IMG/VR virus record: IMGVR_UViG_2671180430_000009 | Span: 1-5,651 of that record | Reading direction: 5' to 3' (one strand) | DNA length: 5,651 nt | From: a virus | Taxonomy: Duplodnaviria; Heunggongvirae; Uroviricota; Caudoviricetes | Shown: in pieces, positions 1-5,651 of the stretch | How positions within the stretch are numbered: position 1 is the stretch's first letter | Layout: each line of letters starts with the position of its first letter | Position numbers and translations under genes: made by a program | Notes under the pieces: model-generated | Seen by the model: the letters and a program-made list of their open reading frames with translations, nothing else | Databases searched by the model: none | Told to the model about the DNA's origin: nothing

Positions 1-141
1 GAACAGGAGGGACAGCTGATAGAAACAGAAGCCACTGGAGCACCTCAAAAACACGATCATACACTAAATCAGTAAGTTGGCAGCATCACCTTTTGTCTCT
101 ATGTTGATATAACCGTTTGTACTTATAAACCTGGAGGCATC

Positions 142-354
142 GTGGAAAAAATAAAGAAACTATTTAGTAGTAAATACGCAGTCATACGTCGTGATGACCT
201 GTCAGTTATAGTCGAAATGGATTACTTCCCTGAAACCAAAAAATCAATGATGTATCGTAATGGTCGAAAGGCAATTTTTTTACCGATGAGGGTAAGTGAC
301 ATTATGGGAAATGATAAACTGCTGGATGAATTGCGAGTCAGAGCATCCTGTTAG
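142..354 (+). CDS. Small hypothetical phage protein (70 aa), GTG start
   Basis: ORF 142-354 starts at GTG 142 with GGAGG at 133-137 (4 nt spacing). Lys/Arg-rich 70-aa product; no family recognised. Position at the head of a co-directional phage gene block. Confidence 0.5.
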   Translation: MEKIKKLFSSKYAVIRRDDLSVIVEMDYFPETKKSMMYRNGRKAIFLPMRVSDIMGNDKLLDELRVRASC

Positions 355-425
355 TATTGGCATTAATTCTGGTATACTACATAACGGGCTGAACACCCAT
401 TCTACTGCGCCAGCGGAGAACTACG

Positions 426-1025
426 ATGGCGCATATACAACTGATCAAACAAACCTCTTCCGGATTACTTCTCCCGGCGACGCCGGAGAGTTGCGATTTT
501 CTGCATCAAATCAAAACAGGTGAGTGGATACACGCAGACTTTAAGCGTGTGCGTAACTACGCATTCCACAAGCGTTTTTTCAAACTCCTGCAACTGGGAT
601 TCGATTACTGGACTCCGGTCGGTGGGGCGATCACGCCTCGCGAACGAGAACTGCTGTCTGGTTTCGTTGATTACCTGTGCGAATCAGTAGGTCGGGAACA
701 TACGCCAGCTCTGAGCGAAGCCGCAGAGCAATATCTGAATACAGTTGCGACACGCAGAACCCGGGATACGGCATTGCTAAAGTCGTTTGAGGCTTTTCGC
801 GAGTGGGTAACCATTCAGGCTGGATTTTACACCGAACATTTTTATCCGGACGGTAGCCGCGGGCGTCGGGCAAAATCCATCGCTTTTGCGAATATGGACG
901 AAACCGAGTTTCAGCAGGTTTATAAATCTGTTCTGAATGTGCTGTGGAACTGGATTCTGTTCCGTAAATTTTCCTCTCCGGAACAAGTCGAAAATGTGGC
1001 CGCGCAGCTGCTGGAGTTTGCGTAA
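426..1025 (+). CDS. Lambdoid-prophage nin-region protein, DUF1367-like (199 aa)
   Basis: ATG 426 preceded by GGAGAA at 415-420; 199-aa ORF; stop TAA 1023-1025 overlaps the next start by 1 nt (TAATG). Family assignment is from memory of prophage proteins that precede YbcO-like genes; not verified. Confidence 0.8.
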   Translation: MAHIQLIKQTSSGLLLPATPESCDFLHQIKTGEWIHADFKRVRNYAFHKRFFKLLQLGFDYWTPVGGAITPRERELLSGFVDYLCESVGREHTPALSEAAEQYLNTVATRRTRDTALLKSFEAFREWVTIQAGFYTEHFYPDGSRGRRAKSIAFANMDETEFQQVYKSVLNVLWNWILFRKFSSPEQVENVAAQLLEFA

Positions 1026-1315
1026 TGGTGGATTTACGTAAAGCGGCGCGGGGGCAGATGTGCACCGTCAGAATTCCTGGCTACTGCAATCACGATCCGG
1101 AAACGTCTGTGCTGGCGCATTACCGACTGGCGGGAACGTGCGGAACAGCGATAAAGCCACACGATATGCAGGCAGCGATTGCCTGTAGCTCGTGCCACGA
1201 TTTAATCGACGGGCGGGTAAAAACCAGCGATTACACCAAAGAAGAATTACGCCTGATGCATGCAGAAGGTGTTTTTCGCACACAAGAAATCTGGAGAAAG
1301 GAGGGATATTTATGA
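1025..1315 (+). CDS. ybcO: YbcO-like (DUF1364) Cys/His-rich putative nuclease, 96 aa
   Basis: 96-aa product MVDLRKAARG...CTVRIPGYCNHDPETSVLAH...CSSCHD matches the length and Cys/His pattern I recall for E. coli DLP12 YbcO. Start overlaps the upstream stop (TAATG); stop TGA 1313-1315 overlaps the downstream ATG 1312 (ATGA). Confidence 0.8.
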   Translation: MVDLRKAARGQMCTVRIPGYCNHDPETSVLAHYRLAGTCGTAIKPHDMQAAIACSSCHDLIDGRVKTSDYTKEELRLMHAEGVFRTQEIWRKEGYL

Positions 1316-1866
1316 TTTACCCAACGAATACAGGAAAAAGCGGAGAACACCTTCGTCTCACCACGCTGGAAAGTGTCTGGATTCAGGGAAAACTACGTAT
1401 GTGGGGGCGCTGGTCGTATATTGGTGGCGGTAAGACGGGGAATATGTTTAACCTGATGTTGACCTCTAAAAAGCTGACAAAAACGGCAATTAACGAGGCG
1501 CTCCGGAGGATGAAAAAAGCAGGTCTGAACAAGTCTGAACTTGAGGCTTTTTTGCGGGATATGATTAACGGTAAGCAAAAGAGCTGGCTGGCGCATTGTA
1601 CTGATGCAGAGGCGTTATGTATTGATCGGGTCATAAGTGAGGTGCTGGCAGAGCATCCAGGATTGATTAGCGTCCTTCGGCAACGGTATGAGGGGCGGGG
1701 GATGACCAAACGCAAAATGGCTGAACTGCTGAATGATGCACACCCGAAATGGAGTTTAAGAACCTGTGAAAGACGCATTGAGCATTGGCTAAAGGTGGCA
1801 GAATTTATTTTGTACAAACCAATGGTTATGGCTTTTGGTATAGAGAAAAAAGTTATTGCTTTTTGA
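1312..1866 (+). CDS. Putative late-gene regulator, Q-antiterminator-like (184 aa)
   Basis: ATG 1312 with strong SD GGAGG 1299-1303 (8 nt spacing); the ORF-track start at 1192 would overlap ybcO by about 120 nt and lacks an SD. It is the last gene before a terminator and tRNA array, the position of Q in Stx-type lambdoid phages. C-terminal segment (MTKRKMAELLNDAHPKWSLRTCERRIEHWL) looks like a helix-turn-helix. No lambda-Q-type Cys zinc finger, so the Q assignment is positional. Confidence 0.6.
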   Translation: MIYPTNTGKSGEHLRLTTLESVWIQGKLRMWGRWSYIGGGKTGNMFNLMLTSKKLTKTAINEALRRMKKAGLNKSELEAFLRDMINGKQKSWLAHCTDAEALCIDRVISEVLAEHPGLISVLRQRYEGRGMTKRKMAELLNDAHPKWSLRTCERRIEHWLKVAEFILYKPMVMAFGIEKKVIAF

Positions 1867-1941
1867 CGTAAAAACTGCTTCAATTCTTGTACGCTTCGCA
1901 AAGCTGTACCGCGAGGCGAATAGCAGACATGGACATTTGAA

Positions 1942-1968
1942 AGAGCCCGCTTTATGCGGGTTTTTTTA
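1942..1968 (+). terminator. Rho-independent terminator downstream of the Q-like gene (candidate tR')
   Basis: GC stem CCCGC (1946-1950) / GCGGG (1956-1960) with 5-nt loop TTTAT, followed by T7 run 1961-1967. Confidence 0.75.
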
Positions 1969-2017
1969 TACCTGAAAAACGGCACAGGACGTTAAACGTG
2001 CTGGTGGTCAGATGAGT

Positions 2018-2046
2018 TTGCAGATGTGATGACATATGGTTATTAT
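2018..2046 (+). promoter_or_regulatory. Candidate sigma70 promoter for the tRNA array
   Basis: -35 TTGCAG (2018-2023), 17-bp spacer, -10 TATTAT (2041-2046); predicted start about 2053, 3 nt before the first tRNA. Motif match only. Confidence 0.35.
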
Positions 2047-2055
2047 TCTGCCTCC

Positions 2056-2132
2056 GGCCCTTTAGCTCAGTTGGTCAGAGCGAGCGACTCATAATCGCCA
2101 GGTCGCTGGTTCAAGTCCAGCAAGGGCCACCA
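2056..2132 (+). tRNA. ileZ: tRNA-Ile2 (anticodon CAU, lysidine type; decodes AUA), phage-borne
   Basis: Cloverleaf folded by hand: acceptor GGCCCTT/AAGGGCC, D-arm GCTC..GAGC, anticodon loop CTCATAA (CAT), T-arm GCTGG-TTCAAGT-CCAGC, discriminator A, encoded CCA. Anticodon and T arms closely match E. coli ileX as I recall it, rather than elongator tRNA-Met. Confidence 0.85.
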
Positions 2133-2133
2133 A

Positions 2134-2210
2134 CCACCACTAGCTCATCCGGATAGAGCATCAACCTTCTAAGTTGACGGTGCGAGGTTCGAGTCCTCGG
2201 TGGTGGGCCA
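2134..2210 (+). tRNA. argN: tRNA-Arg (anticodon UCU; decodes AGA/AGG), phage-borne
   Basis: Perfect 7-bp acceptor stem CCACCAC/GTGGTGG (C1-G72), D-arm GCTC..GAGC, anticodon stem TCAAC/GTTGA with loop CTTCTAA (TCT), T-arm CGAGG-TTCGAGT-CCTCG, discriminator G, encoded CCA. Same anticodon loop as E. coli argU. The argN name is by analogy with Stx phages. Confidence 0.8.
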
Positions 2211-2212
2211 GC

Positions 2213-2288
<76 letters not shown>

Positions 2289-2291
2289 TAT

Positions 2292-2366
<75 letters not shown>

Positions 2367-2371
2367 GTCAG

Positions 2372-2418
2372 AGTCTTTCAGTCTGCGATGATGGGAAATC
2401 CCGGAGTGACTGAAAGAC
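2372..2418 (+). repeat. Long hairpin directly after tRNA-Gly (11-bp perfect stem, 24-nt loop)
   Basis: GTCTTTCAGTC (2373-2383) pairs perfectly with GACTGAAAGAC (2408-2418). Begins 6 nt after the tRNA-Gly CCA and is followed by GTTTAAGTT. Possible 3' processing or termination structure for the tRNA transcript. Confidence 0.5.
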
Positions 2419-2425
2419 GTTTAAG

Positions 2426-2498
2426 TTATGAATGATCGCCTTTTTTTGCAAAATTGCTGTGCAGAAATACTAACCTTCGGGCGTGCGATCATTCATAA
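2426..2498 (+). repeat. 14-bp perfect inverted repeat with 45-bp spacer
   Basis: TTATGAATGATCGC (2426-2439) and its exact reverse complement GCGATCATTCATAA (2485-2498). Spacer contains a T7 run and the palindrome TTTTGCAAAA (2444-2453). Confidence 0.5.
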
Positions 2499-2548
2499 GC
2501 ACTCTGCTTTTATTCCGATTAACTGTGGGTGGTTTGTTGGATAGAGTG

Positions 2549-3692
2549 TGAGGTGTACTGGCAATAGCGGACACTACCATTTGTTCTTTTTTTAAGCAGC
2601 CATCTGATGATATTTTTCCCTGAAGGCTGCCGGGGAGATATTCCCCAGACGAGAGTGACGACGCTGACGATTGTAGAAAATCTCAATGTATTCCCGTATT
2701 ACTGAGATGGCTTCATCCCGGTTATTAAAACGATAGTGGCTCAGGCTCTCATTTTTCAGCGTTCCCCAGAAGCTTTCCATCGGAGCGTTGTCGTAACAGT
2801 TACCTTTACGCGACATTGATGTTTTCAGACCAGACTGCTCCTGTATGACCCGGTAATCGTATGCGCAGTACTGTGAACCTCGATCAGAGTGGTGGATTAG
2901 CCCGGCAGGTGGGCGCTGGCTCCTGAGCGCCATAAACAGGGCTTTACCTGTCAGCTCTTTTGTCATGCGCTCTCCCATGGCGTAGCCGACAATTTCGCAC
3001 GTATAAACATCTTTGATGCCAGCGAGGTACAACCATCCCTCCTGTGTGGCAACATACGTCAGGTCCGCCACCCAGACCTGATTTGGTGCTGTAGGAGCGA
3101 ACGTCTGGTTCAGCAGATTTGGCGCAACTGGCAGATTGTGGTTCGAGTTCGTAGTCGCTCTGAACTTGCGTTTCTGCTTACAGCGTAGCCTTAGCTCCTT
3201 ACGAAGACGTGCCAGTCGGTCACGACCAACGATGATGCCATTCTCTGCCAGCTCCGTCTGGAGCCGCCGGGTTCCATATGTTTCGCGAGTGCGGATATGT
3301 GCCACCTTAATCTCCAGTTTTAGCCGCTCATCACTTTGTTTTCTGTCTGAGGGTTCATGCTGTACCCAGTTGTAATAACCGCTCCTGGATACACCAAATA
3401 CCTGACACATCGCTTCAATGGGAAATTGTTGTCGCCATTGTTCGATTAACGCGTATTTTTCAGCGACTCCTGTGCAAAATACGCTGTTGCTTTTTTTAAT
3501 ATATCTCGCTCAAGGCGAGCTTCATTTAACGCCTTACGCAGTTGCAGAATTTCAGATTCCAGTTCAGCCACCGTGCGGGAACCAGGAGTACCGAGCCCTT
3601 TTCTGGCGGCGGTAACCCATTGTCCTAAAGTGCCTTCAGGAAGAGATAATCGGGAAGCGCCTTCACTGATCGAAAGTTGATTTTCAAACACA
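2549..3692 (-). mobile_element. IS600-like IS3-family element, apparently truncated or rearranged at its left (orfA) end
   Basis: + strand begins TGAGGTGTACTGG at 2549, 43 bp outside the orfB stop. orfA and orfB lie in -1 frame relation with an A7G slippery run (3491-3497 on +). Canonical orfA homology seems to stop near 3690 (see finding). The 3692 boundary is an estimate; if the element is intact its end lies near 3789-3812. Confidence 0.7.
2592..3410 (-). CDS. IS3-family transposase OrfB (IS600-like), 272 aa from first Met
   Basis: 272-aa product with the IS3-family integrase/DDE-type core (e.g. ...WVADLTYV..., ...HHSDRGSQY..., ...KGNCYDNAPMESFWGTLK...). Frame is -1 relative to orfA, so it is probably expressed as an OrfAB fusion by frameshifting. 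Confidence 0.9.
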   Translation of the reverse strand: MCQVFGVSRSGYYNWVQHEPSDRKQSDERLKLEIKVAHIRTRETYGTRRLQTELAENGIIVGRDRLARLRKELRLRCKQKRKFRATTNSNHNLPVAPNLLNQTFAPTAPNQVWVADLTYVATQEGWLYLAGIKDVYTCEIVGYAMGERMTKELTGKALFMALRSQRPPAGLIHHSDRGSQYCAYDYRVIQEQSGLKTSMSRKGNCYDNAPMESFWGTLKNESLSHYRFNNRDEAISVIREYIEIFYNRQRRHSRLGNISPAAFREKYHQMAA

Positions 3693-3790
3693 ATATTGTG
3701 TGGGAATGTCTGACTCCTTACCATCTCCTGTTCTGTGATGTTGTTTTGTTGCAGTTCCAGTGCTCTTTTTTCAGCACCAGAATGGTGCAT
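3446..3790 (-). CDS. IS600-like OrfA (HTH transposition regulator) with atypical or replaced N-terminus
   Basis: Residues from ENQLSISEGASRLSLPEGTLGQWV to the C-terminus match IS600 OrfA as recalled, including the leucine-zipper-like tail and the slippery run near the 3' end. The first 35 codons of this ORF (MHHSGAEKRAL...VRSQTFPHNIVF) lack the conserved helix (..EFKAEAV..) seen in IS3-family OrfA proteins. Possible starts are ATG 3790 or ATG 3724, neither with a well-spaced SD. Confidence 0.6.
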   Translation of the reverse strand: MHHSGAEKRALELQQNNITEQEMVRSQTFPHNIVFENQLSISEGASRLSLPEGTLGQWVTAARKGLGTPGSRTVAELESEILQLRKALNEARLERDILKKATAYFAQESLKNTR

Positions 3791-4113
3791 TGTCGGTCAG
3801 GTTACGTAGTGAACCTCTGGCAGGGGACTGATGATTCATCATTCTGGTGTTGTAAATATCTCTTCGGACAACTTACAAAATATTCTAAGCAAACCCCGGG
3901 AACACACTCTTAACTGCCTTGGCTGGCGGTTTTTTGTACAGCGCTCGGTATGTGTGAGCTGGAAATCAGATTTTGCATGGACTGGAATCATGCTGTTATT
4001 TAGGGGCGAAGAACTGGCTTTTTCTTCCGCCTTCTCACCAGTAACGATTAGAAAAATAATGAAATGCCCCCCTCCGGGGAGGAGGACCGTAGAAAAAAGG
4101 ACCCGCCAGCAAA
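3790..4113 (+). repeat. Copy A of a 324-bp direct repeat (noncoding)
   Basis: 3790-4113 matches 4946-5269 with only 2 mismatches (3833 G vs A, 3836 T vs G) and no indels. The preceding CA dinucleotide is also shared. No credible ORF inside. Confidence 0.9.
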
Positions 4114-4873
<760 letters not shown>

Positions 4874-4945
4874 TGGAGCACCTGTGTTGTTCTGAGGTGA
4901 GCATATCACCTCTGTTCAGGTGGCCAAATTCAGTGTGCCACTTCA

Positions 4946-5269
4946 TTGTCGGTCAGGTTACGTAGTGAACCTCTGGCAGGGGACTGATAATGCATCATTC
5001 TGGTGTTGTAAATATCTCTTCGGACAACTTACAAAATATTCTAAGCAAACCCCGGGAACACACTCTTAACTGCCTTGGCTGGCGGTTTTTTGTACAGCGC
5101 TCGGTATGTGTGAGCTGGAAATCAGATTTTGCATGGACTGGAATCATGCTGTTATTTAGGGGCGAAGAACTGGCTTTTTCTTCCGCCTTCTCACCAGTAA
5201 CGATTAGAAAAATAATGAAATGCCCCCCTCCGGGGAGGAGGACCGTAGAAAAAAGGACCCGCCAGCAAA
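4946..5269 (+). repeat. Copy B of the 324-bp direct repeat, abutting the IS911 IRL tip
   Basis: See copy A. Starts immediately after the terminal CA of IS911 IRL (4944-4945); identity ends at 5269 (GCCAGCAAA), after which the sequence continues toward the holin gene. Confidence 0.9.
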
Positions 5270-5423
5270 AACATTGGGGATGAACAGCTTTCGCTACTCA
5301 GATTGCTGGCGGGTAAAGTTCCTCATGAATTAAGAATGCTACGCGATCTTTTTTAATGGAAATGAAAATTATTGTCAATTAGTCGTGCGTGTTTTTTCAT
5401 ACAATATTGGTAAAGGTGATTCA

Positions 5424-5455
5424 GGCCATCAGAGTTTTGCTGATGGCCTTTTTTC
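5424..5455 (+). terminator. Rho-independent terminator upstream of the holin gene
   Basis: Stem GGCCATCAG (5424-5432) / CTGATGGCC (5440-5448), 7-nt loop, then T6 run 5449-5454. Confidence 0.8.
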
Positions 5456-5489
5456 TTTCCGATAGCACAGGTCTGTCGGGGGGCGGGAT

Positions 5490-5651
5490 ATGTATCAGAT
5501 GGAAAAAATATCAACAGGCATTGCCTACGGCACCTCCGCCGGCAGTGCCGGCTACTGGTTTTTGCAGTGGTTGGATCAGGTCAGTCCATCACAGTGGGCT
5601 GCGATTGGTGTGCTGGGAAGTCTGCTTCTGGGGCTTCTGACTTATCTGACG
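5490..5651 (+). CDS. S: Class II (S21/pinholin-type) holin with dual-start motif, 5' partial (runs off window end)
   Basis: Translation from 5490: [54 protein letters not shown]..., near-identical over this span to phage 21 S holin as recalled. Two in-frame Met codons (5490 and 5499) separated by two codons give the antiholin/holin dual start. No stop before the window end, which is why it is absent from the supplied ORF track. Confidence 0.85.

Follow-up and report, generated by a model that had tools for sequence, protein, structure and literature searches.

A DUF1133-Type Gene of a Lambdoid Prophage as a Probable Late Antiterminator of the Phage 21 Q Superfamily

We analyzed a stretch of 5,651 nucleotides (nt) of viral DNA (Caudoviricetes; IMG/VR record IMGVR_UViG_2671180430_000009, positions 1 to 5,651), which is called the window throughout, and focused on its gene at positions 1312-1866. 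The window belongs to a lambdoid prophage that has a phage 21-type lysis module and is disrupted by insertion sequence (IS) elements (Table 1). The gene is intact and full length, encodes a protein of 184 amino acids (aa), and is followed by a promoter-like region, an intrinsic terminator, and four tRNA genes. Our results suggest that its product is very probably a late-gene transcription antiterminator, belonging to the DUF1133-labelled branch of the superfamily of the phage 21 Q protein (Q21).

The gene at 1312-1866 and its relationship to Q21

The mechanical open reading frame (ORF) of the gene reaches back to a GTG at 1192; however, ATG 1312 (MIYP) is the start in 62 of the 62 aligned members of the family. 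This alignment, on which the family counts below are based, covers Escherichia, Salmonella, Citrobacter, Pantoea, Pectobacterium, Dickeya, Hafnia, Kluyvera, Raoultella, Morganella, and Yersinia. The first-pass annotation had placed the gene in the position of Q, with a strong Shine-Dalgarno sequence before it and a terminator and a tRNA array after it, and its coordinates agreed with ours to within a few bases. It had also noted that the start overlaps the stop codon of ybcO, and the ATGA at 1312-1315 indeed joins the ATG (1312-1314) to the TGA (1313-1315) of a preceding 96-aa ORF, which matched Pfam YbcO (E 7.7e-45). This overlap suggests that translation of the gene may be coupled to that of ybcO. 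A DUF1367 gene (Pfam, E 2.9e-96) is also located upstream.

Table 1. Positions of the features of the window
Feature	Position	Strand	Basis or remarks
IS1 end	1-90		99% identical to IS1A copies
Shine-Dalgarno sequence AAGGAGG	1298-1304	+	7 nt before ATG; read from sequence
Coding sequence, 184 aa, putative DUF1133-type antiterminator of the Q21 superfamily	1312-1866	+	ATG 1312, TGA 1864-1866
Codons of helix H1, residues 18-38	1363-1425	+	Model helix; holds W34 (Q21 W26)
Codons of enlarged basic segment, residues 39-93	1426-1590	+	Alignment gaps, low model confidence, charge count
Codons of helix-turn-helix, residues 132-174	1705-1833	+	Helix 133-143, turn 144-148, recognition helix from 149
Candidate -35 TTGCTT of the late promoter (PR' equivalent)	1856-1861	+	In the gene's final codons; matrix scan
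Candidate Q-binding element TTTGACGT	1862-1869	+	First 8 bp of the -35/-10 spacer; overlaps the stop codon
AAACTGC and -10 region	1872-1885	+	TG (1876-77)-c-TTCAAT (1879-1884) or TCAATT (1880-1885)
-10-like TACGCT, candidate sigma-dependent pause element	1890-1895	+	At or adjoining the predicted start
Conserved initially transcribed block TCGCAAAGCTGTACCGCGAGGCGAA	1896-1920	+	Alignment of relatives
Intrinsic terminator (tR' equivalent), 13-bp hairpin	1938-1968	+	Folding; U-run 1961-1967
tRNA array: CAT, Arg-TCT, Thr-TGT, Gly-TCC	2056-2366	+	Downstream of the terminator, as in phage 21
IS3-family element, IS600-like	2592-3790	-	Complete orfA and orfB
300-bp direct repeat	3788-4087 and 4944-5243		99% identical; brackets the second IS3-family element
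IS3-family element	4035-4909	-	orfB cut short within the integrase core
Start of first late gene, P21-type class II holin S	5499-5651	+	PF04971, E 3.7e-25; 94% identity to S21; runs off the window

The protein matched the Pfam family DUF1133 (PF06576) with 356.7 bits against a cut-off of 23.1 (E 2e-107), and residues 1-176 were aligned to positions 1-176 of the profile. It also matched PF06530, the Q21-type family, with 29.4 bits, which is above the gathering threshold of 26, and PHROG 753, described as 'anti-termination protein Q-like', at E 9e-80. Searching the PDB with phmmer returned the Q21 chains of 6p18 and 6jnx at E 4e-4, and solely Q21 chains were found below E 0.4. By BLASTP, residues 14-181 were aligned to residues 6-155 of the Q protein of phage 21 (OL657228.1) with 24% identity. 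The comparison of the 62-sequence DUF1133 alignment with a 28-sequence alignment of the Q21 family by hhalign gave a probability of 98.4% (E 5e-15), and Q21 was the sole significant match (E 6e-10) when the DUF1133 profile was searched against the PDB. The link is reciprocal, as most close homologues of Q21 carry precomputed matches to both PF06576 and PF06530. The DUF1133-type family comprised 70 clusters at 50% identity among 1.8 billion representatives, mostly fragments. An exhaustive search of these representatives did not reach Q21 at library-wide E-values, so profile methods are needed to connect DUF1133 with Q21.

At E <= 1, Pfam gave nothing beyond PF06576 and PF06530, and neither the lambda-Q family (PF03589) nor PF06323, which we take to be the Q82 family, was matched. 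The 184-aa protein had no match in NCBIfam. Yin et al. printed PF06530 for both Q21 and Q82 in their preprint (10.1101/651190). The protein contains only three cysteines (C96, C103, and C152), which are scattered, and inspection of the sequence found neither a CxxC nor a CxxH pair; C96 is invariant in the family, C152 is present in 59 of 62 members, and C103 is variable. Lambda Q is similar in genome position, presumed role, the possession of a helix-turn-helix (HTH), a Q-binding element (QBE) within the promoter spacer, and a sigma-dependent pause, but it shows no relationship to the window protein in sequence or fold, and the latter is without the zinc-binding cysteine pairs. The absence of a paired-cysteine zinc motif, pointed out in the first-pass annotation, was thereby confirmed. 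Two explanations had been offered there, a non-lambda Q family and a different type of late activator; the former was right, with the DUF1133/Q21 type as the family, and the latter is not favoured. In addition, no unrelated family fits the protein, and in an intact relative from E. coli, the interval from the replication module to the lysis module contains no further Q-family gene.

A structure model was built from the 62-sequence alignment, which includes distant members, and reached a predicted local distance difference test score (pLDDT) of 72.8 and a predicted template modelling score of 0.61. Helix 18-38 was confident, residues 98-175 had pLDDT values of 88-95, and residues 39-93 were low. 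A first model from 33 close homologues was poor (pLDDT 52.8) and was left out of the fold search. In the Foldseek search against the PDB, the best 12 matches were all Q21 chains (E 5e-5 to 7.5e-3), after which only noise was found, and lambda Q was not among the PDB matches. The model thus points to a sigma region 4-like helical body with a packed helix H1, that is, the fold of Q21. The sigma region 4/LuxR-like HTH that had been proposed at the C-terminus is real, and it is no alternative to Q, since such an HTH is the published fold of Q21 (PDB 6P18, 6P19, 6P1A-C, 6JNX, 6JNY), as documented by Yin et al. (2019, 10.1101/651190) and Shi et al. (2019, PMC6606751). The match to sigma-70 region 4, extracytoplasmic function sigma factors, and LuxR spans only 55-90 residues; the window protein lacks sigma region 2 as well as a receiver or ligand domain, and Pfam matched it to neither a sigma nor a LuxR family. 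The antiterminator AlpA of Pseudomonas aeruginosa (7XYA, 7XYB) was not significant in Foldseek (E 0.55), and no sequence similarity to it was detected.

Shi et al. reported that W26 and V27 of Q21 touch the beta-prime dock of RNA polymerase, that S93, K94, and T125 contact DNA phosphates, that H95, A124, R127, and R128 recognize bases in the TGAGCA subsites, and that R113 in the long loop L3 is placed in the minor groove (PMC6606751). The counterpart of W26 is W34 in helix H1, which is invariant (62/62) in the DUF1133 family. The phosphate-contacting T125 corresponds to T151, kept in 61 of 62 members, and position 132, the equivalent of S93, is Ser or Thr in 57 of 62. On the other hand, the base-reading positions are the variable ones across the alignment, and the window protein has R150, E153, and R154 there (R/E/R versus A/R/R in Q21), within a recognition helix that also holds T151 and C152. 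In summary of the likeness to Q21, the two proteins share the sigma region 4-like body with its packed N-terminal helix, the Trp of the dock contact, and the Thr-Cys that opens the recognition helix. The torus of Q21 is built by H2 and the linkers L1 and L2 (10.1101/651190; PMC6606751). In place of the 29-residue torus segment of Q21 (net charge +3), the window protein has residues 39-93, a segment of 55 residues, which is 26 longer and carries a net charge of +8 (family median +5).

Promoter, pause element, and terminator downstream of the gene

In the annotated record of phage 21, the stop codon of Q is followed by the -35, the QBE (ATTGAGCA AATGAGCA) in the spacer, the -10, the start site, the sigma-dependent pause element (SDPE), the terminator, the tRNAs, and the S21 holin. 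The SDPE is annotated as TAAGCTG, with the -10-like core TAAGCT, and adjoins the transcription start site, and the terminator is located within ~50 nt. Our position weight matrix (PWM) scan recovered PR' of phage 21 with a score of 10.1. The window resembles phage 21 in the position of the gene and in the order of the cassette through the tRNAs to an S21-type holin, with the terminator within ~50-80 nt.

The candidate late promoter of the window overlaps the 3' end of the gene. The PWM gave TTGCTT-17-TTCAAT with an upstream TG a score of 5.6, the spacer being 1862-1878, and the consensus A at -11 is absent from either reading of the -10. The counterpart of the -35 in relatives is TTGACT, TTGACA, or TTGCAA, and the -10 region aligned with TAAATT, TGAATT, and TATATT. 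The AAACTGC was kept in nearly all variants of the window type, and AAACCGC and AAATTGC were seen as spacer variants. The transcription start is predicted at ~1890-1891, which would give a terminated RNA of ~75 nt versus ~50 nt in phage 21, and the geometry of phage 21 and lambda suggests a pause position at ~1905-1908.

The close relatives have the block AAACTGCTTCAAT-N5-TAnGCTTCGCAAAGCTGTAyCGCGAGGyGAA in common and diverge from ~1920, where the megablast similarity of the window to its relatives also stops. Block 1856-1920 is inherited together with the gene, and this cassette is the strongest contextual evidence for its identity as a Q gene. The hairpin at 1938-1968 had a folding energy of -18.4 kcal/mol (z -5.2), and none of 200 shuffled sequences folded as well. 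A pattern-based terminator scan of 1200-2600 found nothing, this hairpin included; it was missed probably because the pairing of the A-tract with the U-tract consumes the T tail.

Two other readings of this region were considered and rejected. TACGCT (1890-1895) might be taken as a -10 with a poor -35, but diverse relatives place TAnGCT 4-7 nt after a canonical -10, which argues that TACGCT is a pause element and not a promoter. The same alignment ruled out TTCGCA-AAGCTG (1895-1906), which is similar to TTCGCATAAGCTG of phage 21, as a mark of the start site. Furthermore, 1890-1908 (TACGCTTCGCAAAGCTGTA) is an imperfect palindrome beginning at the pause element, which is not universal in the family, and relatives from Serratia have a near-perfect version (AAGCTTCGCGAAGTT). 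It could fold as a 5'-terminal hairpin in the nascent RNA or serve as a symmetric DNA site.

The same plan was found across the family. For 38 species-level loci and additional viral-contig loci, the best promoter in the neighbourhood of the stop codon was taken as the anchor, and a sigma-70 promoter, with its -10 no more than ~20 nt from the stop codon, was followed after 4-7 nt by TAnGCT, then by ~25 conserved nt and a terminator. The promoters of many genera are near consensus, such as TTGACT-16-TATGAT, TTGACA-16-TAAGAT, and TTGACT-18-TATATT (scores of 12). Co-occurrence was compared between 36 species-level loci and random positions in the same loci. A promoter score of >=7 after the DUF1133 stop was seen in 89% versus 9% at random, TAnG[CA]T located 3-8 nt downstream of the -10 in 83% versus 0.4%, a terminator 60-120 nt after the -10 in 92% versus 11%, and all three jointly in 72% versus 0.0%; because of their common ancestry, the 36 loci cannot be treated as independent observations, which counts against these figures. 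The terminators of the relatives differ in sequence and keep their position (71-85 nt after the -10 in most loci), which argues for selection.

A protein with a fold like sigma region 4 and the domains of LuxR-type activators might be a late-promoter activator instead of, or besides, an antiterminator, by recruiting or stabilizing RNA polymerase at a defective promoter. The candidate binding site abuts the -35, and every variant of the window type examined is without the A at -11 and scores 5.6-7.7, which is unusual for a constitutive PR'. However, many promoters of the family (TTGACT-16-TATGAT and TTGACA-16-TAAGAT, score 12) are close enough to consensus that no activator is required, and the terminator and the pause element, conserved in 92% and 83% of the loci, would be superfluous to a pure activator. 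Moreover, the homology to Q21 spans the whole protein, including the helix that docks on RNA polymerase with its invariant W34. We consider this explanation quite improbable; a pure activator role is unlikely, and the -10 without A at -11 leaves some room for a dual role.

The highest-scoring promoter in the vicinity of the gene is a different one, a strong sigma-70-type site at 2018-2046 (TTGCAG-17-TATTAT, PWM 9.4), and if this was the true late promoter, the hairpin at 1938-1968 would only end the early operon, and the DUF1133 protein would act elsewhere or not at all. Its distance from the DUF1133 stop varies in relatives, it adjoins the tRNA array upstream in both the window and locus L010, and promoters of this type are missing from several variants that have no nearby tRNAs. 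Neither a pause element nor a terminator lies between this promoter and the tRNAs, and the co-inheritance of block 1856-1920 with the gene is contrary to 2018-2046 being PR'. It was rejected as PR', since it belongs to the tRNA module rather than to the gene, and we regard this alternative as very improbable.

Candidate Q-binding element and proposed mode of action

The first 8 bp of the promoter spacer track the triplet of the recognition helix across the family. Proteins with x-R-R have (A/G)(A/G/T)TGAGC(A/C) in 10 of 11 distinct sequences, and one such locus has AATGAGCA, which is identical to the QBEd of Q21. Thus, relatives with R-R at the positions of R127 and R128 of Q21 carry TGAGCA, the half-site of Q21. 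R-E-(S/T/N) proteins have TTGCGCG(G/A/C) (TTGCGCGG) in 13 of 14 cases, the exception being L091, which has no recognisable cassette. In the window type, (R/S)-E-(R/K), the spacer motif is TTT(G/T)ACG(T/C). Loci L097 and L114 (R-E-S) are almost indistinguishable from L101 and L103 (I-R-R) in the -10, the pause element, and the downstream block, whereas both the helix and the motif differ. From this pattern, TTTGACGT at 1862-1869 is a candidate Q-binding site of the window. A second CTGAGCA was observed beyond the pause element, at ~+25 to +33 relative to the predicted start, in loci L097-L106 and L111, which are relatives from Enterobacter, Klebsiella, Citrobacter, Kluyvera, and Buttiauxella. 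It is present with R-R and E-S/T helices alike and thus does not track specificity. The sites in the anti-small RNA paper (PMC4104026) lie further downstream of PR'.

By analogy with Q21, we propose that transcription would initiate at the promoter overlapping the 3' end of the gene (-35 at 1856-1861, -10 at ~1879-1885), after which sigma-70 region 2 would re-bind TACGCT and RNA polymerase would pause ~15 nt into the transcript. The protein would sit on the spacer just past the -35, at the candidate element TTTGACGT, by means of the second helix of its HTH, with R150, E153, and R154 as the presumed readers of the bases. Helix H1 with W34 may dock to RNA polymerase, and the basic segment 39-93 may enter the RNA-exit channel. 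The polymerase modified in this manner would prevent the formation of the hairpin at 1938-1968 and continue transcription across the tRNAs and the P21-type lysis genes.

Several points weigh against this assignment. Experimental work on any DUF1133 protein was not found in the searchable literature, and the activity is an inference; our literature search on Rac-type q and irsA loci likewise gave nothing relevant. The torus-equivalent segment was modelled at low confidence, leaving nozzle formation without structural support; the torus forms only on RNA polymerase. The minor-groove loop, which carries R113 and the contact to the second protomer in Q21, is 13 residues shorter (DAHPKW versus RVARPRKMLCRGGGRIQKP), and the window protein has no Arg aligned to R113 and no counterpart of the loop-mediated protomer contact, although both flanking helices are conserved. 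The association between helix and motif is weakened by linkage, as the motif often lies inside the last codons of the same gene, and S-R-R proteins of Yersinia are without TGAGCA; owing to these two points, TTTGACGT is held as a candidate and not as an established QBE. Unlike phage 21, the window has no TGAGCA in 1850-1900, and scanning 1850-2060 for repeats gave no tandem direct one, so that a second Q21-like subsite was not seen. Finally, the promoter of the window is weak, with a PWM score of 5.6 versus 10.1 for PR' of phage 21 and a -10 without A at -11.

These differences from Q21 also permit a further reading, which we put forward as rather unlikely. The Q proteins of the DUF1133 type may operate by a modified form of the Q21 nozzle mechanism, as suggested by the torus segment that is about twice as long and more basic, the absence of a long minor-groove loop, and the single specificity subsite by the -35. 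In the window subgroup, the protein might then be needed for both initiation and antitermination; the promoter kept by this subgroup in E. coli and Shigella has a -10 without A at -11, and the protein would provide a surrogate of sigma region 4 beside the -35.

Relevance and prophage context

The assignment of a DUF1133 protein as Q is not new in kind. PHROGs and several phage records already use the name ("antitermination protein Q" in the latter), and a survey in 2021 (PMC8136144) noted an HHpred-based Q assignment for DUF1133. In RefSeq, the relatives are named "DUF1133 family protein" only. This study adds quantitative evidence for homology and fold, maps the residues, describes the cassette throughout the family, and specifies how the protein differs from Q21. 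The general picture of how Q proteins act is unchanged by this result. Hundreds of genes in enterobacterial prophages that carry the RefSeq name gain a defensible functional name, and the promoter, pause element, binding site, and terminator can be placed on a testable map of the DNA downstream of DUF1133 genes. In Stx-type and LT-II-type prophages, DUF1133 genes precede toxin and lysis genes, so the type of Q bears on toxin expression. Furthermore, the family is a source of natural variants of the Q21 design, in which the torus segment is longer, the DNA-binding loop is shorter, and helix and site occur in several pairings; such variants could serve in studies of nozzle formation and specificity.

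The first late gene encodes the holin S, which is the presumed target of the Q-dependent read-through. A Q21-like cassette is thus paired here with a phage 21-like lysis module, although the Q protein itself is only 24% identical to Q21. The distance from the late promoter to the lysis genes is ~3 kb in the window, due to the IS elements, versus ~300 nt in the E. coli relative L001. This separation also weighs against antitermination in the present prophage, as the system may be inactive in this host.

The gene might even be a decaying remnant without current function in a prophage that would itself be defective and IS-ridden; in line with this, the end of an IS1 occupies 1-90, and the interval from the tRNAs to the holin contains two IS3-family elements and a 300-bp segment that is duplicated. 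We find this hardly credible, as the ORF is intact and full length, the cassette is unbroken, and the gene is identical in five viral-contig loci; a partial protein from Shigella sonnei is 100% identical as well. Besides, a loss of prophage function would leave the identity of the gene unchanged. The best complete genomes of E. coli were ~96% identical over the region.

The four tRNAs were the only matches to Rfam in the window. The first (CAT) was called Met by ARAGORN and Ile in RefSeq relatives, the Ile call implying a lysidine-modified tRNA-Ile2. The fourth was called Gly (TCC) by ARAGORN at 2292-2366, and RefSeq gives tRNA-Val in the E. coli relative (L001, 7866-7936). The promoter at 2018-2046 ends ~10 nt before the first tRNA, and L010, the sole relative in which both were located, has TTGCGG-17-TATTAT directly upstream of the tRNA array. 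The site at 2018-2046 is most simply the array's own promoter, and the tRNAs may be expressed independently of Q.

Upstream of the DUF1367 gene, the ORF at 142-354 (70 aa) matched PHROG 1813, of unknown function (E 1.6e-32), and had no match in Pfam. Similarity to related prophages begins only at base 91, which indicates that the IS1 replaced the sequence upstream of this ORF. Of 5,426 complete E. coli genomes, only 9 contained the segment of the 300-bp direct repeat, which is unannotated there; it could represent either one end of a different mobile element or a target that was duplicated.

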